DNA of 64,000 nucleotides, taken from positions 214,131-278,130 of the forward strand of contig CAVSEV010000012.1 of the NCBI GenBank assembly GCA_963727015.1. Reading direction: 5' to 3'. Of the stretch, positions 9,713 through 59,762 are shown piece by piece. This stretch comes from an uncultured Actinomycetota bacterium (GTDB lineage: Bacteria > Actinomycetota > Actinomycetes > Streptosporangiales > Streptosporangiaceae). Every line of letters starts with the position of its first letter. The stretch's first letter is position 1. The position numbers and the translations under genes are program-made. The notes under the pieces were generated by a model. The model was not told where the DNA came from. It saw only the letters and a list, made by a program, of their open reading frames with translations, and ran no database searches.

Positions 9713-10002
9713 GGTGCCGATCCTGCCATGCGCGCGGGCAGAACCGCGTGCCAGGGGCGGCCGCCCAGATCGGTGAACCCGTGATGTGGTTGCCGAGCCG
9801 CGGGTGCCGGGCGGGAGACAAATGGCGGTTGGCGCCCTTCCGCCGCGAATAGAAGCGAAAAAAAAGAAACTTCTCGGGCGGCATTTGACTGTCGCTTTGC
9901 TCCGAGCAGGGTATCGCTAAGAAACGGGGGGCGAAGTGGATCTCCATATGCGGTTCGCCCGCTTTGCAATTACACAACGGCACATAAAGTGTCATCGGGG
10001 GA

Positions 10003-10626
10003 ATGTACATGAAGACCATTCGGCACGTTCTGCCGGGCGCCGCGCTCGGCGCGGCCCTGCTTGGCCTGAGCACACCCAGCATCGCGCTTGCCACGTCCGG
10101 CGGCGCCTATCCAGCGTCGGTCACCAGGGGCAGCGTGGTCCCTGTCAGCGGCTCGGCCCTTGGCTCGGCCAACGCGACAGGCGACGCCGCCCAGTCGCGG
10201 ACCATAACGCTCGGGAGAACTGACGGGCCGCCTCCCAAGCATCGCGGGCATGGCGGGCATCCGGGAGGGCCACCCAAGCCCAAGCCACCCAAGCCGCCCA
10301 AGCCACCGAAGCCGCCCAAGCCCAAGCCGCCCAAGCCACCCACGCCACCCAAGCCCAAGCCGCCCAAGCCACCCACACCACCGAAGCCGCCCACACCACC
10401 GAAGCCAACCCACACGCCTCCGCCACCTCCTCCGCCTCCGCCACCGGGCCCTAAGCCACCGGTGCCGCCCCCGCCGCACCACCTGCCACCTGGCGGGCCC
10501 GCGACGGGTGACGGCACGACCTCAAGCGGCTCGGACAGCCCGCTCGTCGCTGGCGGCATCGCGATCGCCGGTCTCGGCGGCCTGGCCGGGATCGTCGCGG
10601 CGCGACGTCGGCGCGCGGGAGCCTGA
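10003..10626 (+). CDS. Secreted proline-rich (PKPP-repeat) surface protein with a C-terminal sorting-signal-like anchor (copy 1)
   Basis: 207 aa. Signal peptide MYMKTIRHVLPGAALGAALLGLSTPSIALA, then (PKPPKPP)n and polyP, then HHLPPGGPATGDG..., a hydrophobic segment GGIAIAGLGGLAGIVAA and an RRRR tail. This is the architecture of a cell-wall sorting signal. RBS GGGGGAATGTAtATG. Confidence 0.6.
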   Translation: MYMKTIRHVLPGAALGAALLGLSTPSIALATSGGAYPASVTRGSVVPVSGSALGSANATGDAAQSRTITLGRTDGPPPKHRGHGGHPGGPPKPKPPKPPKPPKPPKPKPPKPPTPPKPKPPKPPTPPKPPTPPKPTHTPPPPPPPPPPGPKPPVPPPPHHLPPGGPATGDGTTSSGSDSPLVAGGIAIAGLGGLAGIVAARRRRAGA

Positions 10627-10823: not shown

Positions 10824-11000
10824 CGGGCGGCGCCCTTCCATAGCGAACAAAGAAGCGAAAAAGAAGAAATCTCGAATGGATTTTCACCGTGGCTTTGCTC
10901 TTGGCGGGGTATCGCTAACGACTGGGGCGCGAAGTGGATCGCCATTTGCGATTCGTCCGCTTTGCAATTAAACAACGGCACATAAAGTGTCATCGGGGGA

Positions 11001-11696
11001 ATGTATATGAAGACCATTCGATACGTCCTGCCGGGCGCCGCGCTAGGTGCGGTCCTGCTCGGCCTTAGCACACCCAGCGTCGCGCTTGCCATGTCCGCAG
11101 GCGCCCATCCAGCGTCGGCCAGCCAGGGCGACCCAGCCCCTAGCGCCAGCGCAACCCCTAGCGGAAGCGCAACCCCTAGCGGAAGCACAACCCCTAGCGG
11201 AAGCACAACCCCTGACGGCAGCGGCACGGTCCCCGGCGGCAGCGGCACGGTCCCCGGCGGCAGCGCCGCGGCACCCGCTGTGGCCAATGCGACAGGCAAC
11301 AACGCCCAGCCGCCGACAGCGCCTAACCCGAACGGCGTACAACCTAGTGGACAGGGTGGGCCTGGCGGAGGCGGGCCACCCCCACCGCCGCCTCCGCCAC
11401 CAGGCCCGAAGCCATCTCCGCCACCTCCAACATCCCCGCCGTCGCCATCTCCGCCACCTCCGCCGACACCACCGGCCCCGCCGACTCCGATGCCACCACC
11501 ACCACCACCTGGCCCGAAGCCGCCTCCGCCAGCTCCGCCGCACCACCTGCCACCGGGCGGACCCGCGACGGGTGACGGGACGACCTCGAGCGGCACGGAC
11601 AGCCCGCTCGTCGCTGGCGGCATCGCCATCGCCGGTCTCGGCGGCCTGGCCGGGATCGTCGCGGCGCGACGACGGCGCGCGGGAGCCCGACGCTGA
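11001..11696 (+). CDS. Secreted proline-rich surface protein with a C-terminal sorting-signal-like anchor (copy 2, paralog of 10003..10626)
   Basis: 231 aa. Same signal peptide and same C-terminal [51 protein letters not shown]. The middle is a different low-complexity block (TPSGS repeats, polyP). The stop overlaps the sortase start (TGATG). Confidence 0.6.
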   Translation: MYMKTIRYVLPGAALGAVLLGLSTPSVALAMSAGAHPASASQGDPAPSASATPSGSATPSGSTTPSGSTTPDGSGTVPGGSGTVPGGSAAAPAVANATGNNAQPPTAPNPNGVQPSGQGGPGGGGPPPPPPPPPGPKPSPPPPTSPPSPSPPPPPTPPAPPTPMPPPPPPGPKPPPPAPPHHLPPGGPATGDGTTSSGTDSPLVAGGIAIAGLGGLAGIVAARRRRAGARR

Positions 11697-13924: not shown

Positions 13925-13927
13925 GTC

Positions 13928-16624
13928 TTGCGTTACCGGCTGATGGCGACCTACCGCGGAGTCTCCTATGAGGCTGCCATGGGTCCCACCGATGCCGACG
14001 TGGTCTTGTTCGCGTCGAGCCCGCCACACGCGGACTTCGGCTTCCAGGCCGCAGCCGGCTACTGGCGCAAGCGGATCAGCCGTGAGGCACTCGACGCGCT
14101 GTGGGAATCGCGGCCCGTCGGCCGGTACAGATCCGAACCATGTCTCGTGCTCGAGGAGATCGGGGACCGGCTGCACATCGCCCACCTCGGGCACGACGCC
14201 TACCGTGCGGAACGGCTCGGCTACTGGCAGGTCGACCGCGGTGCATACGAGGTGGTCGTGCCGCACGATGAAGTAACCGAACTCACGGATCAGCGGTTGG
14301 ACTATCCGGCGCGCAGGAACCTGGGTGAGGGGATACCCGATGCGTCGAAGTGCGATGAGCCGGCGGCCAGCCTTGAGGCCCCGCCCGCAGCCCAGGCGCC
14401 GTCCGCGGCAGCGCACGACCGGTCCTGGCGTGAGTTCGAGGCGCCGGGCCACGGCCCCGACCGCGGCAGCACGGAGCCGGGCCGCAACGACGGCTGGAAC
14501 GGATTCTCCGCACCGGGCGGCACGAGGGGCGTACAGGGCAGAGGGCGGCGCGGCGTCAGCGGCGCGCACGGCGGCGGCGGGCGCGGCGTCACCGCGCGCG
14601 ACTGGGACGATGCTGGGACGCTGAACGGAGCCGGTTACACGGGCCATCCGCCTTTCGCAAATGGTACCCATGCGCTGCCGCAACCCTCGCGGGGCGGCCA
14701 AGGGACACCGGCCGACGTGGATGGCACGGGGAATTCGAGCACGGGGAATTCGAGCACACTGAATTCGAGAACAGTGAATTCGAGCACAGTGAATTCGAGC
14801 ACGGGGGATTCACGCGCAGGGGATCCAAGGGCAGCGGATCCGACGGCAGCGGATCCGGCGGCAGGGGGCCCGAAGGCAGCGGATCCAAGAGCACGGCGCC
14901 GGAGAGCAGCGGGTCCGGCGGCTGGGGGACCGAAGGCAGGCGGACGAAGGGCAGGGGGACCGAGCGCAGGGGGACCGAGCGCAGGGGGACCGAGCGCAGG
15001 GGGACCGAGCGCAGGGAGACCGAGCCCAGCCGGTTCGAGCGCTGGGACACGCCAGCGCGGCACAGACCAGCCCGGCACAGACCAGCTCGGCACAGACCAG
15101 CCCGGCACAGACCAGCCCGGCACAGACCACAGCACAGACCAGCCCGGCACAGACCACGGCACAGACCAGCCCGGCACAGACCAGCCCGGCACAGACCAGC
15201 CCGGCACAGACCAGCCCGGCACAGACCAGCCCGGCACAGACCAGCCCGGCACAGACCAGCCCGGTCAGAGCCGTCGCAACGCGGACGCAGGCGATGGTGC
15301 TGGCCGCGCCGCAGGGGAGAGCGTCGGCCCGGGCGGGATCGGGGAAGGCAGCAGCGCGCGCGGCCGGAGGGTCGCCGCAGGCCATCGCGCGGCGTGGGAA
15401 AGCGCGGACGAGCGGGCACTGGATGGCGCGGGCGAGCCGGGATCGGGCGAAGGTGCCCGGCAGGCGATGCCTGCGCACAGCGAAGCGGGACCCGGCGCGG
15501 GCGCACGCAGGCCTGGCGGTGGCGCGCACAGGTCCGGTTCCCCGCGGCCCGATGCCCTGGCCGGTCCCACGTCCCAGGAGGAGTTGTCAGGGACCGGCTG
15601 GACGGACGCGCAGGAAACCCGCGCCCAACCACGGCTCCCGAAGCGGCGGCGGGCCGAATCCACGCCGCTGCAGCCGCGGGTCCCTGACTCGGCAGGTTCG
15701 CCGCACGAGCCCGTGACCTTGCCACTGTCGCAACCGCCCGCGGTGGCCGAGGCGGCGGCACCGCCCGCCGCACTCCCATCGGAAGCATCCCCGCAAGGCC
15801 CGCCGCTGTCTGCGCCGTGGGAAGCGCCGCAGTTGGGGCCTCGGGTGGCGGCATCGTCCGCCGACCAGCCCCCGCCGACCGCCGCAGAGCCCTCGGCGCC
15901 TGAGCGGCCATCCACCGCCCGGCCATCGCGCGCCGAGCTAGCCACGGCCCGGCCATCCACCGCCCGGCCATCGCCCGCCGAGCTAGCCACGGCTCGGCCA
16001 TCCCCCGCCGAGCTATCCGCGGCCCGGCCATCCGCGGCCGAGCCATCCGCCGGATCGCTGGCTCCCCCGACGCCGTTCGTGCCGCGGCGACCCGCACAGC
16101 GCGAAGCCGGGCTGCCCACGTCAGGGCAGATCTCCGTCGACCCCTCGTCTGGGCCTGCCTCGTCTGGGCCTGCCTCATCTGGGCCTGCCTCATCTGGGCC
16201 TGCCTCATCTGGGCCTGCCTCATCTGGGCCTGCCTCATCTGGGCCTGCCTCATCTGGGCCTGCCTCATCTGGGCCGCTGCCTCGATACTCGCCAGGGCGC
16301 GACCTCGCCGGACCCACTGGCACGGACGTACCTGGCGCGCCTGGTGGCCGGCGCAGGCGGACCCGGGTGGAGACTCGCTGGGTCTTCAAGGACCTCATTG
16401 ACATGGCCGCGATACCGCACGGCTCCTACGCCGTGGACGAGGAGATAGACGGTGCGCTGTGCCTGATCAAGACCGACGACGGATACGAGGTGTTCATCGC
16501 GACTGATGGCGCCAAACACGAGGTTCGGTTCTTCGACGACGAGGAAGCCGCGTATTTCTATCTGTTCGGCGTGCTTGCCGCGGAGGCGATCCGCGGCGGC
16601 CGGCTGGTGCCGCAGACACAATAA
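13928..16624 (+). CDS. Large hypothetical protein: two globular terminal domains flanking about 600 aa of multiple distinct pentapeptide tandem-repeat arrays
   Basis: 898 aa. N-terminal domain [20 protein letters not shown]...[16 protein letters not shown] and C-terminal domain [75 protein letters not shown] look folded. The middle is arrays of (STGNS/TVNSS), (SAGGP), (GTDQP)x about 14, (ARPS-AEL), (SGPAS)x9, encoded by 15-nt DNA repeats. Confidence 0.5.
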
Positions 16625-23107: not shown

Positions 23108-23480
23108 CCAAACCTGATGTGCGCGGGCAAGTGCGAGCGCCCGGGCAAGTGCGAGCGCCCCGGCAAGTGCGAGCGCCCCGGCAAGTGCGAGCGCCCCGGC
23201 AAGTGCGAGCGCCCCGGCAAGTGCGAGCGCCCCGGCAAGTGCGAGCGCCCGGCAAGTGCGAGCGCCCCGGCAAGTGCGAGCGCCCCGGCAAGTGCGAGCG
23301 CCCCGGCAAGTGCGAGCGCCCCGGCAAGTGCGAGCGCCCCGGCAAGTGCGAGCGCCCCGGCAAGTGCGAGCGCCCCGGCAAGTGCGAGCGCCCCGGCAAG
23401 TGCGAGCGCCCCGGCAGGCGCGAGCGCCCCGGCAGGCGTGAGCGCCCCGGCAGGCGTGAGCGCGCGGGCAGGCGCCCGGC
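23108..23480. repeat. Tandem array of about 20 copies of an 18-bp unit (GGCAAGTGCGAGCGCCCC), minisatellite
   Basis: Units abut directly with no spacers. One unit is 17 nt (shifting GKCERP to ASASAP in the overlapping ORF). Decays into GGCAGGCG(C/T)GAGCGCCCC variants at the 3' end. Confidence 0.85.
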
Positions 23481-24694: not shown

Positions 24695-25060
24695 TCAGCG
24701 GTGGTGATGATCGTGATCGCCGAAGTCACCGCGGTCACCGTGGTCGTGATCGCCGAAGCCACCGTGGTGATGATCGAAATCACCGAAGCCACCGTGGTGA
24801 TGATCGAAATCACCGAAGTCACCGTGGTGATGATCGAAATCACCGAAGTCACCGTGGTGGTCACACCAGTACACGTACGGCCAGTGGCCACACCAGTCGC
24901 GCCAGTGCTCGTGTACCTGAGCCGCATGGACGCTCTGCACAGCGGCGGGCTGGGTCGTTGCCGCACTTGCCATGGTGGACACGCTCATCGCGCCACCGAA
25001 GCCGAGCGCGACAATCGCGGCACTGGTGGCCGCGGCCCGCTTGAACAGCATTCTGGACAT
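24695..25060 (-). CDS. Small secreted histidine/aspartate-rich repeat protein (putative metal-binding)
   Basis: 121 aa. Signal peptide MSRMLFKRAAATSAAIVALGFGGAMSVSTMASA, then HEHWRDWCGHWPYVYWCDHHGDFGDFDHHHGDFGDFDHHHGGFGDFDHHHGGFGDHDHGDRGDFGDHDHHHR. Confidence 0.55.
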   Translation of the reverse strand: MSRMLFKRAAATSAAIVALGFGGAMSVSTMASAATTQPAAVQSVHAAQVHEHWRDWCGHWPYVYWCDHHGDFGDFDHHHGDFGDFDHHHGGFGDFDHHHGGFGDHDHGDRGDFGDHDHHHR

Positions 25061-25069
25061 AGGGTTCCG

Positions 25070-25215
25070 TCCCTTCTGTTATTGGCTGGGGATCCTCTAT
25101 TGGCTGGGGGATCCTCTATTGGCTGGGGACCCTCTATTGGCTGGGGACCCTCTATTGGCTGGGGATCCTCTATTGGCTGGGGATCCTCTATTGGCTGGAG
25201 ATCCTCGGGGTCATG
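25070..25215. repeat. 7 tandem copies of a 21-bp unit (CTATTGGCTGGGGATCCTCT) just upstream of the His-rich protein gene
   Basis: Near-perfect units differing only by G/A, T/C. Located in the promoter region of the minus-strand gene starting at 25060. Confidence 0.85.
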
Positions 25216-26250: not shown

Positions 26251-27750
26251 TCACACCGGCGTCGCCGCCTTGCCAGTCTTCTCCGTCTTGTCCCATTTCA
26301 TCTCCGCCTTCCGCAACTCCTTCACATACGCGCTGCACGCGCAGGCGCAAAGCAACGGCCCATATCCGGCGACGTAGACAAGGGCGGGACTGATCATCTT
26401 GCCGAACCTGTGTGGCTCGGCCATCTTGGCGAGGTAGGCCGCGACCATGGATGCCGCGAGCCACACGTACACCAGCAGCATCACGGAGTGCACGTAGAGG
26501 GGCGTGGGGACGACGTGCAGCAGCCTGAACAGCTCACGCGTGGCCCACCGGCACAGGAGCGGAAAGCACGTGTAGACGATGACAGCGAGGTTCACGAGGC
26601 CAGGGAACAAGACCGCCTCCCGCCAGACCCGCCGTCCGGTCACGGGGTCGATGAGCAGCGAGAATGCCGTGATGAAGATGTAGGTGGCCGCATTCGTGAT
26701 CCACAGCACGTGGAACGTCCGCCATGCCAGCGGGAAGTTGCTGAAATACAGCGCGACCAGCGAGGCCGATGCCGTGATCATGAAAAAAGGGAGCAGGAAG
26801 ATGCAGAACCAGAACACGCCGAAGTTGATGCCGCCGAGATGGTGGCCGTTGCTGCGCCGGAACCACAGCCGCCGGAACCGCAGGGTGACCTGAAAGTTGC
26901 CACGGGCCCAGCGCAGCCGCTGCTTCCACAGGCCACCGATGGTGGACGGCTCCTCCGCCCATACCGTCGCGTGCGGCTCGAACACCACCCGCTGCCCCGC
27001 GATCTGGGTGTTGAACGTCGTGAAGGTGTCCTCGGCGAGTGAGGAGGTATCGATCCGGCCACCTAGCAGCACGAGGTTGGCCCGCGAGTGGAGCTGGGCA
27101 CCTCCGGCCAGGCAGGCGATGGCGCCGATGACGTTCTGGCTGCGCCGGGCTGCCGCCTGGGCGGTGATGTACTCGTAGCCGATGAAGCGGGTCAGGTAGT
27201 TGCCCGGCCGGCTGCCTTCCCTGATGTACGCGGTGACCGCGCCGACATTGCGGTCGGCGAGATGGCGGGTCATCTTCCGCAGCGTGTCGCGCTCGTAGAC
27301 GACGTCGGCGTCCATTATAAGCAGCGCCTGCATCCAGTTGTCGCCGAGGATGACAGACAGGCCATGGTTCAGGGTGTGGGCCTTGCCTTCGCCGCCATGC
27401 TCGCGGCGCAGGTGGACCACACGGCCCGGGTACCTGGCGGCCTTGGCGGCGACCACGTCGGGGGTGGCGTCCGTGCTCGCGTCGTCGACGACGAAGATCC
27501 GCAGGGCTTCCTCGGGATAGTCGAGCGACATCAGGTGATCGATCGAGTTGCCGACGACGGCGGCCTCGTTCCACGCCGGGATCAAGATGGCGGTCCGCGG
27601 GAAATAGGGCTCGCACTCGGCATAGTGGTTCCGCCTGAAATGGATCGCGACGAGCAGGAACTGCCAGCTCCCCGCGAGCTGCGGCCCGGCGGCGAGGATG
27701 ACGAAGGCGACGAGTACCCATTCGCCGCCTGTGCTGGCATCGTGACCCAC
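26251..27750 (-). CDS. Processive family-2 glycosyltransferase (PgaC/IcaA/NodC/cellulose-synthase-like beta-glycan synthase)
   Basis: N-terminal TM, then D,D,D,QxxRW motifs: ILIPAWNEAAVV...FVVDDASTD...LIMDADVV...QRLRWARG, then 4-5 C-terminal TM helices. Start taken at the GTG at 27750 (VGHDASTGGEWVLVAFVILAAG), 5 nt after the PHP gene stop. The listed ORF extends to 27963. Confidence 0.75.
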   Translation of the reverse strand: MGHDASTGGEWVLVAFVILAAGPQLAGSWQFLLVAIHFRRNHYAECEPYFPRTAILIPAWNEAAVVGNSIDHLMSLDYPEEALRIFVVDDASTDATPDVVAAKAARYPGRVVHLRREHGGEGKAHTLNHGLSVILGDNWMQALLIMDADVVYERDTLRKMTRHLADRNVGAVTAYIREGSRPGNYLTRFIGYEYITAQAAARRSQNVIGAIACLAGGAQLHSRANLVLLGGRIDTSSLAEDTFTTFNTQIAGQRVVFEPHATVWAEEPSTIGGLWKQRLRWARGNFQVTLRFRRLWFRRSNGHHLGGINFGVFWFCIFLLPFFMITASASLVALYFSNFPLAWRTFHVLWITNAATYIFITAFSLLIDPVTGRRVWREAVLFPGLVNLAVIVYTCFPLLCRWATRELFRLLHVVPTPLYVHSVMLLVYVWLAASMVAAYLAKMAEPHRFGKMISPALVYVAGYGPLLCACACSAYVKELRKAEMKWDKTEKTGKAATPV

Positions 27751-27755
27751 TCCGG

Positions 27756-28553
27756 TCAGGCTCCCTGCGGCGTGCCCGCGCTTCGCGGCGCGGCTTGGGC
27801 CGTGGATGGCGCGGCGCACAAGGTACCCGACGCGGCGCGCACCGTCTGGATGACCGAGTCGTACCCGGCGATGTCTGCGCAGTGGTGGCTGTCGCTGCCA
27901 GCAACCAGGCGCACGTCGGCCCGGGCGAGAGCGTCGACCGTGCGAGCCGATGGACATCTCCACTTCTCGTTTACCTCGACGAGCGCGCCCGCGCGTGCCG
28001 TCCGCTTAGCCAGGTGGCTGAGCAGCAACGGCGGAACCTGATCTTCGTTTAGGCCGATCTTGGGAAGCAGGCTGAACAGGTGCGCGACGAGGGCATGCTG
28101 CGCCGACGCGAGGGCATGCACGGTTGCCTCGACGAGGCATTCGATCGCCTCTTGCGCCGTCACGTCGCCGCTGCCGATCGCCGCGCGCATTTCGGCCGGG
28201 TGAACGGGGCCGCGGTCGGCGGGGAACCTGTGATCAGCGATCAGGAGAAGGTCGATACCGTCGGCAGCATCGAGGCAGCCGACGCCGGGGGGGACATCGA
28301 GCCGGCCTGAGGAGTCCAGAATCTTGGCCTCGAGGCCAGCCAGGACCCGGGGCAGGGAAAGGGACCGGTACACGGACACGGCCGCGACGAAATCGGGAAC
28401 CCACGCCGTGTCGCTGCGTACGTGGTCGGCCAGGCAGAGGGTGCGCAGCTGACGGTCGCGCGCGACCCGCACGTTCTGCGCCAGGGTGCTCGCACCGTCC
28501 GAGAACGTCGAATGGACGTGGTAATCCTCGTCGAGCTCGACACGGATAGTCAT
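27756..28553 (-). CDS. PHP-domain metal-dependent phosphoesterase (CpsB/histidinol-phosphatase-like)
   Basis: 265 aa. DYHVHSTFSDGAST, CLADHV, LLIADHRFP, LVAGSDSHH are PHP His/Asp metal ligands. Confidence 0.6.
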   Translation of the reverse strand: MTIRVELDEDYHVHSTFSDGASTLAQNVRVARDRQLRTLCLADHVRSDTAWVPDFVAAVSVYRSLSLPRVLAGLEAKILDSSGRLDVPPGVGCLDAADGIDLLLIADHRFPADRGPVHPAEMRAAIGSGDVTAQEAIECLVEATVHALASAQHALVAHLFSLLPKIGLNEDQVPPLLLSHLAKRTARAGALVEVNEKWRCPSARTVDALARADVRLVAGSDSHHCADIAGYDSVIQTVRAASGTLCAAPSTAQAAPRSAGTPQGA

Positions 28554-29560
28554 GTCGGCACCGGCTCGGCGGATTCGAGGACGTCGGCGAGCTCGACGAA
28601 GCGCTCATCGAGGAAGCGCACCACGGCAACTTCGCGGAAGCCGACGTGCGCGGGTACCGGCCTGCCGAGCAGCGCATCGAGGGCGAGCCTCGGCATGTCG
28701 ACCCCGCTCGCAATGGTCAGCGGAAGCGTCCCCGGCATCCGAGGGTTCACCTCGAGCAGCGCCGGGCAGCCCGCGCGGTCGCGCCTGCACTGGACGTTGG
28801 CGACATAGGTCAGGCCAGTGGCGCGGGCGACGTCGTGGCCGAACTTTTCGAGTTCGGCGTCGTGGACCGTCCGGCCGGCGATCGAGACACCGGAGTCGAC
28901 GCGCACCCTGATGCGCGGCACGGCCGCGATCACATGCCCGCGGCAGTCGGCGAGCACGTCGATGGAGTACTCCGCGCCAGGAAGGAATTCCTGAACGATC
29001 AGGTCCGCCGATCGTTCAATCGCGGCGAGCGCCGACGCGGACTCGACCGTCACGATGCCGCGAGATCCGCTGCCCGTGCGGGGCTTGACCACTACCGGAT
29101 AGGTCCAGGTGGCTGGTTCGACGGCGGAGCCGAACGGTTCGGTGCGCGGTACGTGGACGACGCCCGCGAGGTGCCTGGCGAGCGACAGCTTGTCGAGAGT
29201 GATGTCAAGCGCGCCAGCGGGTGCGAGCAGTAGCCCAATGCCTGCCGCCGCGAACGCCGCGCGGGCGGCGGCCAGCGGCCGCAGCTCAGCGTCGACGGTC
29301 GGCAGCACTATGCCCACTCCGAGTGCAACGCACCTAGCCAGCAGCGATTCGGCGAAATCCGGCGCGCAGCCCGCCGGGATCAGCGTCCGGGCGCCCTGCG
29401 GGACGAGGTAGAGGCCGGCGGCCCACCGATCCATGTCGGCCGCGACCAGCTCGATCGTTTCGTCGGCGCGCAGCGACTTCATGGCGCTGATCGCTGCGGG
29501 GCCGCCGGCGCCTGTGACCAGGACGCGCAGCCTGCGGCGACCACCGTAAGGCCTGCTCAC
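28550..29560 (-). CDS. ATP-grasp domain ligase
   Basis: 336 aa. PVVVKPRTGSGSRGI (P-loop-like Lys), LIVQEFLPGAEYSIDVL, LEVNPRMPGT (the E-x-N catalytic pair). Confidence 0.7.
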   Translation of the reverse strand: MSRPYGGRRRLRVLVTGAGGPAAISAMKSLRADETIELVAADMDRWAAGLYLVPQGARTLIPAGCAPDFAESLLARCVALGVGIVLPTVDAELRPLAAARAAFAAAGIGLLLAPAGALDITLDKLSLARHLAGVVHVPRTEPFGSAVEPATWTYPVVVKPRTGSGSRGIVTVESASALAAIERSADLIVQEFLPGAEYSIDVLADCRGHVIAAVPRIRVRVDSGVSIAGRTVHDAELEKFGHDVARATGLTYVANVQCRRDRAGCPALLEVNPRMPGTLPLTIASGVDMPRLALDALLGRPVPAHVGFREVAVVRFLDERFVELADVLESAEPVPT

Positions 29561-30705
29561 GTCCGGCCCGCCGCCTCCGGACCGGTGCGGGCCCGGCGCC
29601 CGGCTTGCGACCGGGCGCGCCTGGGCGAGCCAGGGTGATCGTCATTCGCTGGCCGGATGGCCGCGCGATCACGGATGGCCTCGAACGCCTCTGCGTGGTT
29701 TCCTTCGCAGAACCGTGACCAGTAGCGGGCAGTCGAGGCGATGAGGTCGGGTTCCAGGTAGTCGCGCACGGCGAACTGGGAGGCGAACATTTCGATGGCC
29801 TCGAGCTTGCGGCCAACGTGATTATCGATGGTCACGAAGTGCGTCGGGCGGAAGTCGACCGTGGCAGAAGGGGACTGGAAGCAGTAGACCCGCCCGATCC
29901 GCCGCGTCGCCACCATCGCCGCGCGGTGAGTGTTCCTGTGGTCCTGATGGACATCATGGATGGAATGGGTGTAGACGGTGGTCGGCTGAACCGCCGCGAT
30001 CACGTCATCGATCACCGCTATGGTGGGATTCCCCTCCCGGATGTGGGTGTCTTCGAGGTTCTCGAGAAAAAGGCGCGCGCCGATGAGGCCGGCCGCTTTC
30101 TCCGACTCGCCAGCGCGCTGCGCCTCTATGCCTCCGCCCGCGCCGTGGGACAGCGTCAAGATCGACACCGAGTCGCCCGCGGCCTGGTGAGCAAGCAGCG
30201 CGCCTGCCGCGCCGATCTCCACGTCGTCGGGGTGCGCGCCGATCGCAAGGACACTCTCGCTGCCGGTGGATCCCGCTATCCTGCCTCGCTCGACCAGCGT
30301 GGCCGCCGTGGCGATGAGATCGTCCGGACGGATGGGTTTCTGCAGGAACTCCGTGACGGGCATCCGCAGGGCCGTGACGGCTCGATCCACGGTCGCGTGG
30401 GCGGTGACCACGGCCACCGGCAAGGTGGGCCGGAGGCGGCGCACGCGCTCGACGAGCTCAAGCCCGGACAGGCCCGGCAGCTCGATGTCGGCGACCACCA
30501 GGTCCCACGGCTCGGTTTCGATGTACCGCAGCCCGGCAACCGGATCCAGCACGTGCCTGACCTCGAAACCACCCCGCACCCGCAGGACGAACGTGGCAAA
30601 CCGGCCGAACGCGGGATCGTCGTCGATCAGCAGAACCCGCGCACGAGCCGACATCCGCTCACTGGCTTGCATGTGCCCCCGCATCACCCGTTGCACACCA
30701 TGCAC
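29557..30705 (-). CDS. Response-regulator receiver (REC) domain fused to a PIG-L/LmbE-family N-deacetylase
   Basis: REC: VLLIDDDPAF...DLVVADIELPGLSGLEL...VAVVTAHA...FLQKP, with the phospho-acceptor Asp, Thr and Lys present. PIG-L: VLAIGAHPDDVEIGAAGALL...HSIHDVHQDH, Zn ligands. Confidence 0.75.
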   Translation of the reverse strand: MHGVQRVMRGHMQASERMSARARVLLIDDDPAFGRFATFVLRVRGGFEVRHVLDPVAGLRYIETEPWDLVVADIELPGLSGLELVERVRRLRPTLPVAVVTAHATVDRAVTALRMPVTEFLQKPIRPDDLIATAATLVERGRIAGSTGSESVLAIGAHPDDVEIGAAGALLAHQAAGDSVSILTLSHGAGGGIEAQRAGESEKAAGLIGARLFLENLEDTHIREGNPTIAVIDDVIAAVQPTTVYTHSIHDVHQDHRNTHRAAMVATRRIGRVYCFQSPSATVDFRPTHFVTIDNHVGRKLEAIEMFASQFAVRDYLEPDLIASTARYWSRFCEGNHAEAFEAIRDRAAIRPANDDHPGSPRRARSQAGRRARTGPEAAGRT

Positions 30706-30742: not shown

Positions 30743-33259
30743 TTACTTTAAGTGTGATTCAGTCTGCCCGGCGGCACTTTCGGCCGTGCCCGCCGAGTCG
30801 CCGGCCGAGTCGTCCGCCGGGCCGGCTGGCGGGCCGCCCGCTGGGGCGCCAGCGGTCCTGCCCTTCCATACGCCGCCGCGCCCGGCCCGGTACTGGCGGG
30901 CTGAGTCGAGGGTCATCGCGGCGTACATGAGCGCGACAACCGGCAGCGCCGCCGCACGCAGCGGCGAGAGCCGGTAAAGCCGCAGCACGGGCAGGTAGGT
31001 GACCGCCATGATCAACCAGCCCGCTAGGCCGGAGACGGCGCACCACAACGCGGGCGGGCCACCACCCGCCGCCACGCCGGTCAAGCCAGCGAGCGCCGCG
31101 ACCGGTGGGATCAGGTAGAACCACAGCAGGCCCACGATCGTGCAGCCGAGCAGGGCCGGCGAGTAGCGCAGCTGGTAGTAGGCACTGCGGGTGACCATTT
31201 GCCACAGTTCTGCGAGCCGGGGGTAGGGGCGACGGCTGACGACGGCCGTGCTGAATCCCAGCCAGCACCTGCCGCGCCCGGGCGAACGCTTGATCAGGTG
31301 CCCGAGCGCGACGTCGTCGATCAACGCGCCGCTGATCTGCCGCATCCCGCCCGCGGCCGCGAGCGCCTGACGGCGCACCAGCATGCAGCCCCCGGCCGCC
31401 GCGGCGGTCCGCCCGCCCGGCCGGTTCACCCGCCTGAACGGGTAAAGCTGAGCGAAGAAGTAGACGAACGCGGGCACCAGGGCACGCTCCCAGGCGGTCT
31501 CGGCGCGTAGCAGCGCCATTTGCGAGACCAGGTCGCGCTCATCGCCCACCGCGGCGGTCATCAATGCCGTGAGCGTCCCCTGCCTGTAGGCGATGTCGGC
31601 GTCGGTGAACAGCACGTACTCACTGTCGGGCGCCGCACGGATACCTTGCTCCATGGCCCACACCTTGCCTGCCCAGCCGGCTGGGCGGCGCTCTCCAGCT
31701 ACCACGCGCAGCGGCCGCCGGTGCGGGCCGGCGAGCGCGGCTGCCACCCGGGCCGTGCCGTCAGTGCTGCGATCATCCACCACCAGTACCTCGAGCTTGC
31801 CCGGATAGTCCTGTGCGAGCAGGGTCGGCAGGGTGGCAGGCAGGATCTCGGCCTCGTCGCGCGCGGGGACGACCGCGACGACCGCGGGCCAGCGCGCCGC
31901 GTCCTCGCCGTGCGCGCGCGCCACGTCCACGCCGTCGCGCCCGCCGCGGCGGCGGGGCAGGCGCTGGCCGGTCCGCCAGTAGCCGCCGTGCGCCACCAGC
32001 AGGTATATCCAGGCGACGGCCGCGACGACAGCGGCAGCGGCGAGAACGGGCACCACGCTGCTAGTTAGCGCCTGTCCCGCCGGTCGGGGGGCGCGGCCGG
32101 CCGGTCCCGCAGGTGCGGCCGGCCGGTCGGGGGGCGCGGCCGGCAGGCGGCCGGGGCCCGGGGCGGCTGGCCGCTCGGGTGAGGCGGCGAGGTTCTTCTT
32201 GACCAGATCGAGAATGGTCACGCCCTGGGCGACAAGACCGGCGGCTATCTCACCGAGGCCATCGGAGCCGTTCAGCACGCTCAGGTTGGCGCCGGCCAGA
32301 CCGCCCGCAGCCTCCTTGACGATCTGCGGCAACTGGTCGATGAGCATCCGGTCGAGCGCGACGCGATCGTAGGACGCTGCCGCCTCGGCCTGAACCTTCA
32401 TCCGCTCCGCCTCGGCCTGAGCGAGGATGCGCACCCGCTCAGCGTCCGCTTGCGCGGGCTTCACGACCTCAGCGACCAGTTGCTGCTGGCGCAACTCGGC
32501 CTGACGCTGCGCAAGTTCGGTCTGCGCCGCGATGACCGCGCGCTGGGTGTCCGCCTGGGCGAGCGGACCGGCCTGCGCCGCCTCGGCCTGCGCCTTGTCC
32601 ACCTCCGCCTTGTACTGGGCCTGCACGACAGCCGTCTGGCGCGCATACTCCGCCTGCTTGCGCTGTGACTCCTGCTCGGCCTCGGCCGCCGCCTGGTTGG
32701 CCTGGGCCTGCGCGATCTTCGCCTGCCGCTGGATGGCCGAGACATGCGGGGCGGCCATCGCATCGATGTAGCCGGTCCCCATGTCGTCGATGGACTGGAT
32801 CTGCAGCGAGTCGACGATCAGGCCGATCTTGGCCATCTCGGCCTTCGAGCCATCCAGCACCTCGGTCGCGAGCTTCTGCCGCTCGGTGACGATCTCCTCG
32901 ACGGTCATCGAGCCGATGATCGAGCGCAGGTGCCCGGCGAAGATCCGCCCGGTCAGCACCGACATCTGATCCTGATCGGACAGGAACCGTTGTCCCGCGT
33001 TGACGATGCTCTCCTCGTCGTTGCCGACCTTGAAGGCGATAACAGAACGGACATTCACCGAAATGCCCTGGCCGGTGACGCAGGTTTCCGCGACCTCGGC
33101 CTCACACATGGCCAGGGTCAGGAAGCTTGCCTTGCGGAAGCCGGGGACAACGAAGGCACCATGGCCGGTGACGACCCGGAATGGTGTGCCGTCGCGGCCA
33201 CGCCTGCCGCCGGCGATCAGCATGGCTTCGTCGGGTGCGGGCACGCGGTAACCAAACAT
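30743..33259 (-). CDS. SPFH/band-7 (flotillin-like) domain fused through a Pro/Ala linker and TM helix to a GT2 glycosyltransferase domain
   Basis: 838-aa single ORF. Residues about 1-380 are SPFH plus a flotillin-type coiled coil (KIAQAQANQAAAEAEQESQRKQAEYARQTAVVQAQYKAEVDKAQAEAAQ). Then PERPAAPGPGRLPAAPPDRPAAPAGPAGRAPRPAG, a TM, then GT2 (VVAVVPARDE...VLVVDDRSTDGT...GWAGKVWA...FTDADIAY) and C-terminal TMs. Confidence 0.65.
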   Translation of the reverse strand: MFGYRVPAPDEAMLIAGGRRGRDGTPFRVVTGHGAFVVPGFRKASFLTLAMCEAEVAETCVTGQGISVNVRSVIAFKVGNDEESIVNAGQRFLSDQDQMSVLTGRIFAGHLRSIIGSMTVEEIVTERQKLATEVLDGSKAEMAKIGLIVDSLQIQSIDDMGTGYIDAMAAPHVSAIQRQAKIAQAQANQAAAEAEQESQRKQAEYARQTAVVQAQYKAEVDKAQAEAAQAGPLAQADTQRAVIAAQTELAQRQAELRQQQLVAEVVKPAQADAERVRILAQAEAERMKVQAEAAASYDRVALDRMLIDQLPQIVKEAAGGLAGANLSVLNGSDGLGEIAAGLVAQGVTILDLVKKNLAASPERPAAPGPGRLPAAPPDRPAAPAGPAGRAPRPAGQALTSSVVPVLAAAAVVAAVAWIYLLVAHGGYWRTGQRLPRRRGGRDGVDVARAHGEDAARWPAVVAVVPARDEAEILPATLPTLLAQDYPGKLEVLVVDDRSTDGTARVAAALAGPHRRPLRVVAGERRPAGWAGKVWAMEQGIRAAPDSEYVLFTDADIAYRQGTLTALMTAAVGDERDLVSQMALLRAETAWERALVPAFVYFFAQLYPFRRVNRPGGRTAAAAGGCMLVRRQALAAAGGMRQISGALIDDVALGHLIKRSPGRGRCWLGFSTAVVSRRPYPRLAELWQMVTRSAYYQLRYSPALLGCTIVGLLWFYLIPPVAALAGLTGVAAGGGPPALWCAVSGLAGWLIMAVTYLPVLRLYRLSPLRAAALPVVALMYAAMTLDSARQYRAGRGGVWKGRTAGAPAGGPPAGPADDSAGDSAGTAESAAGQTESHLK

Positions 33260-43784: not shown

Positions 43785-45903
<2,119 letters not shown>

Positions 45904-56289: not shown

Positions 56290-56470
56290 GAATGCGCGGC
56301 ATCTGTGCAATCGAAACTTCGGGCACTCGAAACCTCGGGCACTCGAAACTTCGGGCACTCGGAAACTTCGGGCACTGGAAAACTTCGGGCAATCGAAACT
56401 GCGGGCAATCGAAACTGCGGGCAATCGAAACTCGGGCAATCGAAACTCGGGCAATCGAAACTGCGGCGGC
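56290..56470. repeat. About 10 tandem copies of a 17-18-bp unit (ACTCGAAACTTCGGGC, then AATCGAAACTGCGGGC variants) between priA and the PAS gene
   Basis: Two sub-families of units in tandem. AT-richer than surroundings. Confidence 0.8.
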
Positions 56471-56523: not shown

Positions 56524-57714
56524 TCAGTCTTGCTTCGCCGACGCGGCCTTCTGCAGCTGATCTTGGTTCTCATCAACAGGGTCAGCAGTGCCCTCGCTGC
56601 CAGGAGTGTCAATGCGGTCCATGATCAGGATCACCCCGTGGATCATCCCGTCCTCGCCGCGGAGCAGGCTGCACGCCACCCGCAGCTGCACAGGCCGGCC
56701 CCGCCGGTTGACGGCGTCGACTGTCGCATCACTGCCCTCTGCCCGCTCGGTAAGCATCCGCTGTAGCAGCGGCACGATCTGCTGCACAGGCAGGCCGATA
56801 TCGAGCGTGAGCAGGTGCCTGCCGTCCGCCTCGTCCGCGCGAAGCCCCCACAGCTCCTCGGCGCCTGGGCTCCACACCCGCACCCGCAGATCCTCATTCA
56901 CCACGATGACCGCGCTGCCAAGGCTGCGAAGCACGGAGCCGAGAAATCCGTTCGCCGCGTCGAGCTGCTCGGTCCGCACGCGCAACACGTCGTTGATCGC
57001 CTGCAGCTCGTCGTTAGTCGACTGCAGTTCCTCGTTCATCGTCTCGAGTTCCTCGTTAGTGGACTGCAGTTCCTCGTTTGTGGTCTCGAGTTCCTCGTTA
57101 GTGGACTGCAGTTCCTCGTTGGTCGTCTCCAGCTCCTCGTTCAGCGACTGCAGCTCTTCGTAGGCCCGCTCGAGATCCTGGTTGGAGCGCTCAAGTTCGT
57201 CCCGCAGCCTGCGGTTACGTGTCACGTCGACGAAGCTGATCCCGACGCCGACCAGTTCGTCCGCGTCGCTCACGAGCGGGACGACCGCGACGTCGAGCAC
57301 CGCGGGCTCTGCGCCCAGGCCTCGGTGCCAGGTCACGTCGGTCAGCTCGACGGCGCGCTTGTCCTTCTTCACCTGTTCGATCACCGACCGGAGCTCTATC
57401 GGGCGGTACGAGACCTCGAGATCTTGAAACAGCCTGCCCACATCGCGCGCGTGCAGGTTAAACAGGTTCCCGGCGCGAACGTTGACCACCGCGAGCTTGC
57501 CCGCCTGGTCTATTGCGAACTGCGCGACGGGCCCGGCGGCAAGCGCCGCGGCCTCGAGCCCGGCTGGGGCCGAACTGCTCGTCGGTGCCGTACTGCGCCG
57601 CTGCCCGCGGGACGTCGCCCGGGCCCACGCCCGGAATCTTACGGAACAGGCGCTTGCGCAGGTCGACCGGTTCGAACCGGTCGCCGTGATTGAGCAGCAT
57701 CTCGGCCTTGCCAA
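56524..57714 (-). CDS. PAS, coiled-coil (EELQSTNEELETTNEEL heptads), PAS protein; 5' end overlaps the CheR gene by about 250 nt (possible frameshifted CheR-PAS fusion)
   Basis: PAS1 from about 57570 (LAAGPVAQFAIDQAGKLAVVNVRAGNLFNLHARDVGRLFQDL). Then NEELQS/NEELET repeats, then PAS2 (LRSLGSAVIVVNEDLRVRVWSPGAEELWGL). No start codon between the CheR stop (57458) and PAS1 except the ORF start at 57714. Confidence 0.6.
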   Translation of the reverse strand: MARPRCCSITATGSNRSTCASACSVRFRAWARATSRGQRRSTAPTSSSAPAGLEAAALAAGPVAQFAIDQAGKLAVVNVRAGNLFNLHARDVGRLFQDLEVSYRPIELRSVIEQVKKDKRAVELTDVTWHRGLGAEPAVLDVAVVPLVSDADELVGVGISFVDVTRNRRLRDELERSNQDLERAYEELQSLNEELETTNEELQSTNEELETTNEELQSTNEELETMNEELQSTNDELQAINDVLRVRTEQLDAANGFLGSVLRSLGSAVIVVNEDLRVRVWSPGAEELWGLRADEADGRHLLTLDIGLPVQQIVPLLQRMLTERAEGSDATVDAVNRRGRPVQLRVACSLLRGEDGMIHGVILIMDRIDTPGSEGTADPVDENQDQLQKAASAKQD

Positions 57715-58474
57715 GGAAGAGGTAACCCTGGCTGGTCAGCGCGAAGTGGAACTTGCGGATGACGTTCGCCTGCGCTTCTGCGGTGAAATACATAAGCGTG
57801 TTGCGCGCGACAAGCAGGTCGACGCGCGAGATCGGGGCATCCCTGGTCAGGTCGTTGCGGCCGAATATTACCTGCCTACGCAGGTCGCGGCGGAATGAGT
57901 ACCGCGTCCCCGCGGGTTCGAAGTACTTTTCCCTAAGCTCGTCAGGAACCTCGGCGACCTGCCGCTCCGTATACGTTCCCGCGCGTGCCTGCTGAAGGGC
58001 ATCCTCGTCGAGATCAGTGGCGTAGATTTTCGCTCGGTGGCTGAAACCCTCGGGTCCAAGCGCCTCGGCGAACAGGATCGCCAGCGTGTATGCCTCCTCA
58101 CCAGTGGCGCAGCCCGCGCTCCAGATCCGGATGGGCCTTGCGGTTCCTTTCGTGGCCAGCAACTGGGGCAGTATCTCGTCGCGCAGCGCTTCCCAAGCGG
58201 GCGGGTCGCGGAAAAAGCCGGTCACATTGATGAGGACGCTGTCGAAGAGTCTCCCGAACTCATCCGGTTCCAATTCGAGGTAATCGCGGTACTCGCCGAC
58301 CGACTGCAGTCCGCGCGCGTCCATCCGGCGGCTGATCCGCCGCTGCAGCGTTGATCTCTTGTAACCGGTGAAGTCGAATCCGCGGGTCTCCTTGAGCATC
58401 AAAAGGAGTTCGTCGAAATCGTGGTCCACGTCGCCCGGCACGTCGGTAAGCGTACGCCGGCCAGTTCGCGTCAC
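57458..58474 (-). CDS. CheR-type protein-glutamate O-methyltransferase
   Basis: ELLLMLKETRGFDFTGYKRSTLQRRISRRM (CheR N-domain), IRIWSAGCATGEEAYTLAILF (SAM-binding). The last about 45 aa (GVGPGDVPRAAAQ...) look out of frame or non-native. Confidence 0.8.
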   Translation of the reverse strand: MTRTGRRTLTDVPGDVDHDFDELLLMLKETRGFDFTGYKRSTLQRRISRRMDARGLQSVGEYRDYLELEPDEFGRLFDSVLINVTGFFRDPPAWEALRDEILPQLLATKGTARPIRIWSAGCATGEEAYTLAILFAEALGPEGFSHRAKIYATDLDEDALQQARAGTYTERQVAEVPDELREKYFEPAGTRYSFRRDLRRQVIFGRNDLTRDAPISRVDLLVARNTLMYFTAEAQANVIRKFHFALTSQGYLFLGKAEMLLNHGDRFEPVDLRKRLFRKIPGVGPGDVPRAAAQYGTDEQFGPSRARGRGACRRARRAVRNRPGGQARGGQRSRREPV

Positions 58475-58542
58475 ACACCCCGGACCTACGCACCGGCGCT
58501 ACCACCCGCTTGGGTCCTGCGAAGACCTGCCGTTTGCCGTTG

Positions 58543-59688: not shown

Positions 59689-59762
59689 CTTCGGCTCACA
59701 CTCTCTATGGCCATCCTTCAGCTGGGGCCATGCACGCCCGACGGCGCTGTCGGGCGCACATC

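Follow-up and report, generated by a model that had tools for sequence, protein, structure and literature searches.

Gene content of the locus

In the window, by which we mean the whole 64-kb stretch of DNA that was analysed, a gene encoding a response-regulator receiver (REC) domain fused to a PIG-L/LmbE zinc de-N-acetylase domain is the first of a four-gene cassette, with genes for an ATP-grasp ligase, a PHP-family phosphoesterase and a GT2 glycosyltransferase in that order behind it (Table 1). The longest open reading frame at the locus begins with a GTG at 30705, runs to 29557 and encodes 382 aa. The initial annotation had given exactly this span, which we amend in two respects: the gene lies on the minus strand, and translation probably starts at the ATG at 30672, giving a protein of 371 aa. 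We prefer this ATG because the four closest homologues start there and a GGGGG Shine-Dalgarno-like run precedes it; the 371-aa homologues open with MQASE or MQATE. Neither a transmembrane segment nor a signal peptide was predicted for the fusion protein, which is therefore expected to be cytoplasmic.

Table 1. Positions of the fusion gene, its domains and the neighbouring genes in the window
Feature	Position	Strand	Description	Evidence
REC-PIG-L fusion gene	29557..30672	-	371 aa from the probable ATG start at 30672	ORF, Pfam, homologue starts
Receiver (REC) domain	30307..30636	-		PF00072 (E 1e-22), invariant residues, fold (TM ~0.9)
PIG-L/LmbE zinc de-N-acetylase domain	29668..30255	-		PF02585 (E 2.4e-22), PDB 2ixd/6p2t by sequence, Foldseek
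C-terminal tail, residues 336-371	29557..29667	-	Disordered, unconstrained	
ATP-grasp ligase	28550..29560	-		PF15632 (E 3.7e-32), PF02655, PylC-like_N
PHP-family metal-dependent phosphoesterase	27756..28553	-		PF02811
Processive-type membrane GT2	26251..27750	-	~499 aa, last cassette gene	Glyco_tranf_2_3 (E 4.6e-31)
Flotillin (Band_7) fused in frame to HpnB-type GT2	30743..33259	-	Upstream neighbour	Pfam, NCBIfam

The ATP-grasp gene, which starts with GTG, shares 4 nt with the end of REC-PIG-L, and the PHP gene, which starts with ATG, shares 4 nt with the end of the ATP-grasp gene; all four cassette genes are, as read from the sequence, translationally coupled. The same four-gene cassette was found in ~40 loci from Streptosporangiaceae, Blastococcus, Leifsonia, Microbacterium, Cellulomonas, Solirubrobacterales and Acidimicrobiia, and in rearranged form, frequently lacking the PHP gene, in Legionella, Polyangiaceae and Rhodospirillales; the ATP-grasp gene adjoins the fusion gene in most loci. 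The upstream flotillin-HpnB gene was rejected as a cassette member, given that its synteny is confined to the closest relatives: it is absent from this position in loci L001-L080, and in the closest relatives L081 and L082 flotillin and HpnB are two separate genes.

Profile matches of the ATP-grasp protein included 2pn1, CPSase, VanA/Ddl and an L-amino-acid ligase. The metal ligands of the PHP protein (HxH, D, H, E, H, H, DxH) are invariant and form the full set, and E. coli YcdX is the closest protein of solved structure. Solved structures searched for clues to the substrates of these two enzymes yielded uncharacterised or generic relatives only (2pn1, CPSase, VanA/Ddl, YcdX and PolX-PHP). 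The GT2 carries the generic processive motifs D, DxD, ED and QxxRW, as DDAS89, DAD147, ED240 and QRLRW277, together with 4-6 C-terminal transmembrane segments; against the PgaC/IcaA profile (TIGR03937) it scored 135.3 bits, below the cut-off of 422.3. A sister cassette in Catenulispora that lacks the receiver carries an additional UDP-GlcNAc 2-epimerase, a hint that the sugar may be a HexNAc.

The fusion protein and its family

The Response_reg profile (PF00072) matched aa 24-133 of the 382-aa ORF over profile positions 1-109 of 111, scoring 80.8 bits (cut-off 30.2). Across an alignment of 22 sequences, the residues D17/D18/D19, D62, T90, F109 and K112-P113 (371-aa numbering, used from here on) are invariant; D18/D19 make up the acid pocket, and D62, encoded by the codon at 30487-30489, is the predicted phospho-acceptor. 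The switch residues T90, F109 and K112-P113 are spaced by 19 positions from the threonine to the aromatic residue and by 3 from there to the lysine, the same spacings as those of T87, Y106 and K109 in CheY. An AlphaFold2 model of the fusion protein (mean pLDDT 90.7, pTM 0.75) shows the (beta-alpha)5 order of a receiver, with strands at 12-16, 37-41, 58-62, 86-90 and 108-111 and helices at 20-33, 44-53, 70-80, 95-103 and 116-137. In Foldseek this half matched solved receivers (TM ~0.9); it matches the receivers of DctD, NtrC1 and FixJ-type proteins and also resembles those of FleR and LuxO. The complete receiver domain claimed in the initial annotation is thus borne out by Pfam, the invariant residues and the predicted fold, including the conserved aspartate on which that claim had been made to hang.

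The PIG-L profile (PF02585) matched aa 153-266 of the 382-aa ORF over profile positions 1-128 of 129 (80.2 bits; cut-off 28.2). The zinc/catalytic motifs AHPDD (146-150) and HQDH (242-245, corresponding to HxDH) are intact and align with H12/D14/D15 and H110/H113 of BC1534, and H147, D149, D150, H242, D244 and H245 are invariant in the 22-sequence alignment; essentially all of loci L001-L080 retain the motifs, five with single substitutions. The Rossmann-like alpha/beta fold of this half superposes on BC1534, TT1542 and BshB (TM 0.76-0.81 per target), with Foldseek matches to 2ixd (E 3e-14, TMt 0.77), 1uan (TMt 0.81) and 6ull (TMt 0.76). Diacetylchitobiose deacetylases were matched as well, as was GalB (5cgz), one of the PIG-L folds that act as hydratases. 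With its deacetylase motif intact, the fusion protein is more likely to have amidase chemistry, and both halves look catalytically competent.

The two domains are joined by a single continuous helix, alpha5 (116-137), which leads straight to PIG-L beta1 (140-145) and is modelled with high confidence. The C-terminal tail has a pLDDT below 50-55 and a dN/dS of 1.2-2.2, and does not align among homologues. The N-terminal attachment of the receiver to a PIG-L/LmbE domain, as originally proposed, is upheld by the domain HMM search, the predicted fold and the homologues. These number 2,334 at E <= 1e-5, and PF00072 and PF02585 occur together in every one of the best 120. Clustering at 50% identity left 256 representatives at E <= 1e-30; in the best 150 of these, no fewer than 64 cover both domains. 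Carriers comprise hundreds of species, including cultured Leifsonia, Microbacterium, Cellulomonas, Blastococcus and Legionella. PIG-L-only homologues, which the initial annotation had considered potentially fatal to the fusion, do exist (21 relatives scored); they mark the receiver as an add-on module and leave the fusion standing.

Databases label the REC-PIG-L homologues automatically only, and sometimes wrongly as NtrC/HydG, many bearing the JGI name "two-component system, NtrC family, response regulator HydG". This name, together with the similarity of the receiver to those of FleR, DctD, NtrC1 and LuxO, could suggest an ordinary NtrC/HydG-type transcriptional regulator, and a fusion seen in one assembly might stem from a frameshift or a misjoin. 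Both explanations are almost certainly wrong. Pfam and NCBIfam detected no AAA+ sigma-54 or HTH domain in the protein, and models of NtrC, GlrR, AtoC and LuxO matched over the receiver part alone (~115-125 residues). An artefact is contradicted by the more than 2,300 homologues, the best of which share the two-domain ORF, and by the confidently modelled inter-domain helix. Domain content, homologues and helix model together refute the NtrC/HydG identity and the artefactual join alike.

The REC-PIG-L family is large and uncharacterised, and its architecture, being widespread and automatically annotated, is less singular than the initial annotation implied. In a full-text search of the literature the fusion and the cassette were undescribed, with a passing mention of REC-LmbE in reviews of response-regulator outputs being possible, and no characterised PIG-L/LmbE zinc de-N-acetylase was found as a response-regulator output. 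LmbE, PIG-L and deacetylase go unmentioned in a 2018 archaeal census (PMC5847659).

Kinase linkage and the putative orphan receiver

Forty-nine family copies were scored as having a canonical receiver, retention of D18, D19 and D62 being part of the criterion. In 33 of them the cassette has a PAS-HisKA-HATPase_c kinase no more than 3 kb away, on the cassette strand in all but three; in Blastococcus (L006/L010) a kinase and a REC-Hpt relay protein are encoded farther upstream. The same kinase type was found near none of the 11 copies with an altered or degenerate receiver and near none of the 21 PIG-L-only relatives. An adjacent kinase is typical of the family, not obligatory. The linkage (33/49 versus 0/32), together with purifying selection on the receiver, supports the earlier view of the domain as a genuine phospho-acceptor.

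The window has no such kinase. Neither tblastn with seven cassette kinases nor an HMM of the HisKA-HATPase core (--max) detected HisKA/HATPase_c anywhere in the 64 kb, extending to the entire window the initial remark that the operon encodes no kinase; the CheB/CheR/PAS genes at 56.5-59.8 kb lack a kinase domain, and the three closest relatives (L081-L083) have no histidine kinase within 10 kb. Phosphorylation of the window protein is for this reason putative, and the regulator would be an orphan in this clade, phosphorylated by a more distant kinase or by acetyl phosphate. Response regulators whose kinase is encoded far away are common.

The missing kinase would also fit a pseudo-receiver, that is, a constitutive structural or dimerisation module attached to a deacetylase that is regulated by transcription only. 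Other branches of the family clearly went that way: in Occultella, Streptomyces sp. cg35 and Serinicoccus, and likewise in two MAG-derived loci (Nocardioidaceae bacterium and Jatrophihabitans sp.), the N-terminal domain is kept but D62, T90 or K112 is lost and there is no kinase, and the Legionella copies miss the DD acid pocket. However, these lineages that truly lost signalling lost residues of the phospho-chemistry too, whereas D18, D19, D62, T90, F109 and K112-P113 are all intact in the window protein and its relatives. The ratio of REC to PIG-L dN/dS is somewhat raised in the window clade (~2-4x versus ~1-2x in most kinase-linked clades), which is compatible with mild relaxation and counts against the reading that we prefer. 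The receiver dN/dS itself, at 0.21-0.48 in the kinase-less clade formed by the window and its relatives, lies inside the range of kinase-linked clades (0.10-0.49) and indicates that this receiver is under purifying selection. We therefore judge a pseudo-receiver unlikely, all the more as a distant kinase would be nothing unusual, and rather favour a response regulator that is orphaned yet still works, and whose phosphorylation would govern a cytoplasmic de-N-acetylation step in the synthesis of a modified HexNAc glycan.

A proposed route to modified glycans

In the route that we propose, the GT2 would make a beta-linked oligo- or polysaccharide that contains HexNAc, the PIG-L domain would strip off an N-acetyl group to expose an amine, and the ATP-grasp enzyme would join a carboxylate to this amine as an amide. 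The carboxylate may be phosphorylated, in which case the PHP enzyme would then remove the phosphate. Phosphorylation of D62, relayed via the T90/F109 switch and the continuous alpha5 or via receiver dimerisation, would switch the deacetylase on or off, and modification of the glycan would hinge on an environmental signal. That signal would come, in most lineages, from the PAS-containing histidine kinase encoded in the cassette, and in the window clade from a kinase elsewhere in the genome or from acetyl phosphate. We infer that the deacetylase is gated, whether by activation or by inhibition, and likewise infer the substrate and product, which are guesses because no component reaches the curated cut-off of a characterised enzyme. 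For a deacetylase in the cytoplasm to work on what a translocating synthase makes would be mechanistically awkward unless the oligomer is retained, as for NodC, or the intermediate is lipid-linked. For the family as a whole we tentatively suggest that REC-PIG-L and the PAS kinase may be an unstudied, widespread two-component system whose output would be a glycan-editing step switched directly at the protein level, and in which phospho-dependent N-deacetylation of a GT2-made HexNAc oligo- or polymer would precede its N-aminoacylation by the ATP-grasp enzyme.

The PIG-L domain might instead act, like MshB or BshB, on a soluble small molecule (a GlcNAc-glycoside, a UDP-sugar or a thiol-cofactor intermediate), with the ATP-grasp protein as a mycothiol- or bacillithiol-like ligase and the PHP protein as a sugar-phosphate phosphatase. 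BshB1 (TIGR04001) is indeed the best NCBIfam match of the PIG-L half, but its score of 73.8 bits is well under the equivalog cut-off of 182.5; the nearest structures are BC1534 and BshB, but MshB is a distant structural match only (TM 0.51). A glycosyltransferase, a phosphatase, a deacetylase and an ATP-dependent ligase mirror MshA/MshA2/MshB/MshC, and the cytoplasmic location of the fusion protein agrees with such a pathway, as do three Leifsonia loci (L011, L012 and L017) in which REC-PIG-L, ATP-grasp, PHP and kinase are kept and no GT2 was seen. The transferase of the cassette is, however, a membrane-embedded GT2 with a QxxRW processivity motif, not a soluble GT4, and the family occurs in Legionella, Polyangiaceae and Rhodospirillales, which are not known to make mycothiol or bacillithiol. 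On balance a small-molecule substrate appears improbable. BshB1, BC1534 and TT1542, and also MshB, share with the fusion's PIG-L domain the fold (at the TM values given above for the first three), the AHPDD and H-x-D-H motifs and a size of ~200 aa; identity is just 22-24%, the fusion protein has the receiver in addition, and its genomic partners (GT2, ATP-grasp and PHP) are not the ones found in the thiol pathways.

The modified-glycan route has parallels in logic. A "deacetylate, re-acylate" scheme is common to NodC/NodB/NodA, LpxC/LpxD, MshB/MshC, TunE/TunC and teicoplanin Orf2*/acyltransferase, a likeness of logic only, and the cassette, whose GT2 motifs are NodC/PgaC-like, combines a HexNAc transferase, a de-N-acetylase and an amide former. 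Compared with the Nod, Lpx, Tun and teicoplanin modules, its deacetylase belongs to the PIG-L type and not to CE4 or LpxC; its amide former is an ATP-grasp enzyme, with a free carboxylate as donor, not an acyl-carrier- or CoA-dependent transferase; and a PHP phosphoesterase and putative two-component control are added. PgaABCD/IcaADBC have a processive membrane GT2 in common with the cassette, with partial de-N-acetylation as a key modification. The PNAG deacetylase PgaB/IcaB is CE4 and extracytoplasmic, whereas that of the cassette is cytoplasmic, of another fold and fused to a receiver; PNAG is regulated by c-di-GMP or transcription.

As a regulator, the fusion protein resembles CheB (REC and methylesterase), PleD/WspR (REC-GGDEF), RpfG (REC-HD-GYP) and PorX (REC-PglZ/alkaline-phosphatase-like), which likewise carry an N-terminal receiver on a catalytic domain and no DNA-binding domain. 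Like these enzyme-output regulators, most REC-PIG-L relatives are paired with a dedicated histidine kinase, and, as for CheB-type regulators, control is expected to be post-translational, through relief of inhibition or dimerisation. Unlike them, the output is a zinc de-N-acetylase and the target would be a step of a carbohydrate pathway, not a chemoreceptor or second messenger.

Nearly all studied two-component systems work via transcription or second messengers, and the few regulators with an enzymatic output studied so far (CheB, PleD, RpfG and PorX) have each opened a field. Recognition of the family corrects the recurrent mis-annotation as an NtrC-family response regulator HydG. In most carriers a single operon holds the kinase, the regulator and the pathway enzymes, so that the gating hypothesis is directly testable. 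If the receiver gates the deacetylase, a signal would change the chemistry of a surface or secreted glycan in seconds, with no need for new gene expression. Should the reading of phospho-dependent deacetylation and aminoacylation be true, the family would add a new class of output to those of response regulators, as well as a new family of modified bacterial glycans that might resemble Nod factors or a zwitterionic PNAG.

A receiver-deacetylase fusion protein and its relatives

Window G+C is ~70%, and the best matches to the window in a collection of species-representative genomes were uncultured Actinomycetes and Streptosporangiaceae genomes. The ORF for REC-PIG-L, a receiver (REC) joined to a PIG-L/LmbE deacetylase, was found exactly where the initial annotation had placed it, on the minus strand, which that annotation left out (see table). 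Its description of a complete REC fused to PIG-L was borne out, with Pfam matches for Response_reg at residues 24-133 (E = 1e-22, 80.8 bits) and PIG-L at residues 153-266 (E = 2.4e-22, 80.2 bits) of the called ORF. Neither AAA+ nor HTH domains were found in the protein with Pfam and NCBIfam, and no NCBIfam model exceeded its cut-off, the top one being BshB1 (73.8 vs 182.5 bits). The true start most likely is the ATG at 30672, since each of the four closest homologues has 371 aa and begins with MQASE or MQATE; a GGGGG lies just 5´ of this ATG. In the 371-aa frame, receiver residues D17-D18-D19, D62 (the conserved Asp of the N-terminal domain), T90, F109 and K112-P113 are invariant in a 22-sequence alignment, as are the PIG-L zinc/catalytic residues H147, D149, D150, H242, D244 and H245, which align with AHxDD and HPDH in B. 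cereus BC1534 and in BshB. The protein is without transmembrane segments and cytoplasmic.

In an AlphaFold2 model (mean pLDDT 90.7, pTM 0.75) the receiver has a (beta-alpha)5 fold, and its final helix, alpha5 (116-137), continues unbroken into a Rossmann-like domain at that domain's first strand. Receiver and deacetylase site are both intact, and the two halves are predicted to be rigidly joined through alpha5. The C-terminal 36 residues are disordered in the model and evolve neutrally by dN/dS. In Foldseek searches, solved receivers matched the N-terminal half at TM about 0.9, while at per-target TM values of 0.65-0.81 the C-terminal half resembled BC1534, TT1542, BshB and diacetylchitobiose deacetylases of archaea; no solved chain among the matches joins a receiver to PIG-L. 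By sequence and structure together, the receiver is nearest to those of DctD, NtrC1, FleR and FixJ.

The fusion is very common. A search of 5.8 billion proteins returned 2,334 homologues at E <= 1e-5, and both Response_reg and PIG-L were present in all of the best 120. A 50%-identity library held 256 representatives at E <= 1e-30; among the best 150, at least 64 aligned across both domains. At least 544 relatives came from a scan in which each species was represented by a single genome. Actinomycetota carriers include Streptosporangiaceae, Blastococcus, Leifsonia, Microbacterium, Cellulomonas, Leucobacter, Solirubrobacterales, Acidimicrobiia and Thermoleophilia; carriers beyond the phylum include Legionella, Lysobacterales, Marinicella, Rhodospirillales, Polyangiaceae and Longimicrobiales. 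Homologues are named by automatic annotation only ([quoted passage not shown], "response regulator"), through which the architecture itself is already visible; "NtrC family response regulator HydG" is a frequent wrong name. The Pfam domains, homologue search and structure model refute both an artefactual fusion and an NtrC-type regulator, and we are very confident that the protein is a genuine response regulator with an enzymatic output. Response regulators with enzymatic outputs are already known, but a PIG-L de-N-acetylase output and its cassette appear uncharacterised: a full-text literature search, with two classic reviews of response-regulator outputs outside its reach, returned no paper on either.

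The cassette and its surroundings

REC-PIG-L is followed by genes for an ATP-grasp ligase, a PHP phosphoesterase and a membrane GT2. Start and stop codons overlap by 4 nt at the first two junctions, and only a few bases separate the PHP gene from the GT2; the four genes form a translationally coupled operon.

Features of the window
Feature	Position	Strand	Remark
REC-PIG-L	29557-30705	-	382 aa from GTG (ORF call)
ATP-grasp ligase	28550-29560	-	3´ of fusion gene
PHP phosphoesterase	27756-28553	-	3´ of ATP-grasp gene
Membrane GT2	26251 to about 27750	-	3´ of PHP gene
Flotillin fused to HpnB-type GT2	30743-33259	-	upstream neighbour of fusion gene; 838 aa
HHHGDFGDFD-repeat ORF	24695-25060	-	121 aa; 30-nt tandem array at 24701-24859
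CheB, CheR and PAS ORFs	56524-59766	-	three consecutive ORFs
Repeat-containing ORF	13925-16624	+	899 aa
Paralogous ORFs	9988-10626; 10986-11696	+	adjacent
Tandem arrays	23126-23463; 15052-15264; 16143-16275; 25080-25206; 45744-45882; 56307-56466

Using tblastn with the window proteins, we found the gene order kept in about 40 of 80 related loci, and rearranged cassettes, mostly without the PHP gene, in Legionella, Polyangiaceae and Rhodospirillales. Distant PIG-L-only relatives in Modestobacter, Catenulispora and an Acidimicrobiia MAG adjoin a GT2 and an ATP-grasp gene, the Catenulispora locus additionally having a UDP-GlcNAc 2-epimerase. Because these relatives still sit with both genes, the deacetylase-GT2-ligase triad predates the receiver, which joined in one branch.

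The GT2 is a processive synthase of the cellulose/chitin/hyaluronan/NodC/PgaC kind, with the motifs DDAS, DAD, ED and QRLRW and, towards its C-terminus, 4-6 transmembrane segments; its top curated match, PgaC/IcaA, is far under cut-off. The PHP protein has a complete metal-ligand set, with E. coli YcdX as its nearest solved relative, and the ATP-grasp protein is closest to 2pn1 (an uncharacterised structural-genomics protein), carbamoyl-phosphate synthetase, VanA/Ddl and an L-amino-acid ligase. The deacetylase is unlikely to belong to a thiol-cofactor-like pathway with a soluble glycoside as its substrate: the likeness to BshB and the glycosyltransferase/phosphatase/deacetylase/ligase parallel with thiol-cofactor pathways speak for it, but the GT2 is membrane-bound and processive, and the family also occurs in Legionella, Polyangiaceae and Rhodospirillales, none of which is known to produce mycothiol or bacillithiol. 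That the deacetylase acts on the GT2 product we give an even chance.

The flotillin-HpnB gene, beside the cassette in the closest relatives only, was rejected as a cassette member. It encodes flotillin (Band_7) and a hopene-associated GT2 (TIGR03469, 456 bits vs cut-off 379) in a single ORF with a Pro/Ala-rich linker. L081 and L082, the two nearest relatives, have them as separate genes, divided by a stop codon and a spacer of 33-200 bp. Either raft scaffold and glycosyltransferase are truly fused in this lineage alone, or the single ORF results from a sequencing error. The 121-aa ORF has a signal-peptide-like N-terminus followed by His/Asp-rich repeats and may be a secreted metal-binding peptide; a small ORF without a Pfam match occupies the same post-GT2 position in L081. 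Near-perfect tandem arrays with units of 15-30 nt are unusually frequent in the window, and most of them appear to be intergenic. The largest (18-nt unit, 18.8 copies, 98% identity) precedes a SIMPL-domain gene and gives rise to a spurious "PGKCER" repeat ORF. The 899-aa ORF has no Pfam match and many short tandem repeats and lies in a stretch of anomalous AT skew (0.33), and the two paralogous ORFs both start MYMKTIR(H/Y)VLPGAALGA (signal-peptide-like), followed by Pro/Ser/Ala-rich repeats.

Histidine kinases and receiver integrity

The initial annotation had noted the lack of a kinase in the operon, and this holds for the whole 64-kb window: no histidine kinase was detected by tblastn with seven kinases or by a HisKA-HATPase core HMM with filters off, and Pfam found no kinase domain among the major ORFs. 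The CheB (without a receiver domain), CheR and PAS_10/coiled-coil/PAS ORFs, the last two overlapping by ~280 bp, look like the remains of one multidomain gene, broken up by frameshifts or divided into separate genes, and have no kinase domain. The three closest relatives, 84-87% identical and syntenic, have no kinase within 10 kb. The window copy is thus a kinase-less orphan, a less convenient member of the family.

Elsewhere, a PAS-HisKA-HATPase_c kinase lies immediately upstream of the fusion gene on the same strand (Streptosporangiaceae-like loci L002-L004; L013, L039, L047) or divergently upstream (L016, L024, L033). Kinases directly follow the GT2, or the PHP gene if there is no GT2, in Microbacteriaceae, Cellulomonas and Leifsonia, and L001, the closest species-representative genome, has a hybrid CHASE3-HAMP-PAS kinase directly 3´ of the GT2. 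In Blastococcus (L006 4429-8905) a kinase and a REC-Hpt protein are encoded upstream, implying a phosphorelay that would end on the fusion protein. We also noted two REC-PIG-L genes in tandem in a Rhodoglobus MAG (L020 4713-6822), a single REC-PIG-L gene followed by four paralogous histidine kinases, the biosynthetic genes being absent, in a Microbacteriaceae MAG (L043 7920-17392), an extra stand-alone receiver gene upstream in L005, and a second N-terminal receiver domain in L013 and L047.

For every family copy we recorded whether the receiver was intact and whether a strong kinase match lay within 3 kb of the cassette. Kinases accompanied 33 of the 49 scored copies with a canonical receiver, none of 11 with a degenerate or altered receiver (including Occultella, Streptomyces sp. 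cg35, Serinicoccus, Nocardioidaceae and Jatrophihabitans MAGs, and Legionella copies without the DD pocket) and none of 21 with PIG-L only. No stronger evidence is available for a working phospho-acceptor function of the receiver in this family than that kinase and canonical receiver occur, and are lost, together. In Legionella loci L040, L042 and L048, which retain D62, T90 and K112, the DD acid pocket is P-N or P-D, no kinase is nearby, and an 864-aa TPR protein replaces the PHP gene; this receiver probably is not phosphorylatable in the ordinary way.

The missing kinase, and such degenerate branches as a precedent, speak for a purely structural, phosphorylation-independent receiver in the window's clade, but we consider this improbable, as its phospho-acceptor site is fully intact, with all key residues retained, and the receiver is still under purifying selection (dN/dS 0.21-0.48 for REC, 0.11-0.13 for PIG-L). 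The kinase-linked clades gave 0.10-0.49 for REC, a range that takes in the kinase-less values, and 0.09-0.37 for PIG-L; the REC/PIG-L ratio is somewhat higher in the kinase-less clade. Regulation of the fusion protein by phosphorylation is likely.

Proposed switch and chemistry

Phosphorylation of D62 would switch the T90/F109 pair and the alpha4-beta5-alpha5 face, and the signal would pass through the continuous alpha5 helix or receiver dimerisation to alter deacetylase activity or oligomeric state. The receivers most like this one signal via such helices, and short PIG-L enzymes such as BC1534 and TT1542 form oligomers in crystals. For the cassette we regard a "deacetylate, then re-acylate" scheme as the most likely chemistry: a HexNAc-containing chain would be made by the GT2, PIG-L would expose an amine on it, the ATP-grasp enzyme would couple a carboxylate to that amine as an amide, and PHP would strip phosphate from a donor or intermediate. 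NodC/NodB/NodA, LpxC/LpxD, TunE/TunC and MshB/MshC are precedents by likeness only. On balance we favor, somewhat, the overall picture of a receiver-controlled deacetylase inside a glycan-making cassette, a system that is attractive and directly testable for specialists in two-component signaling or glycobiology, rather than a shock.
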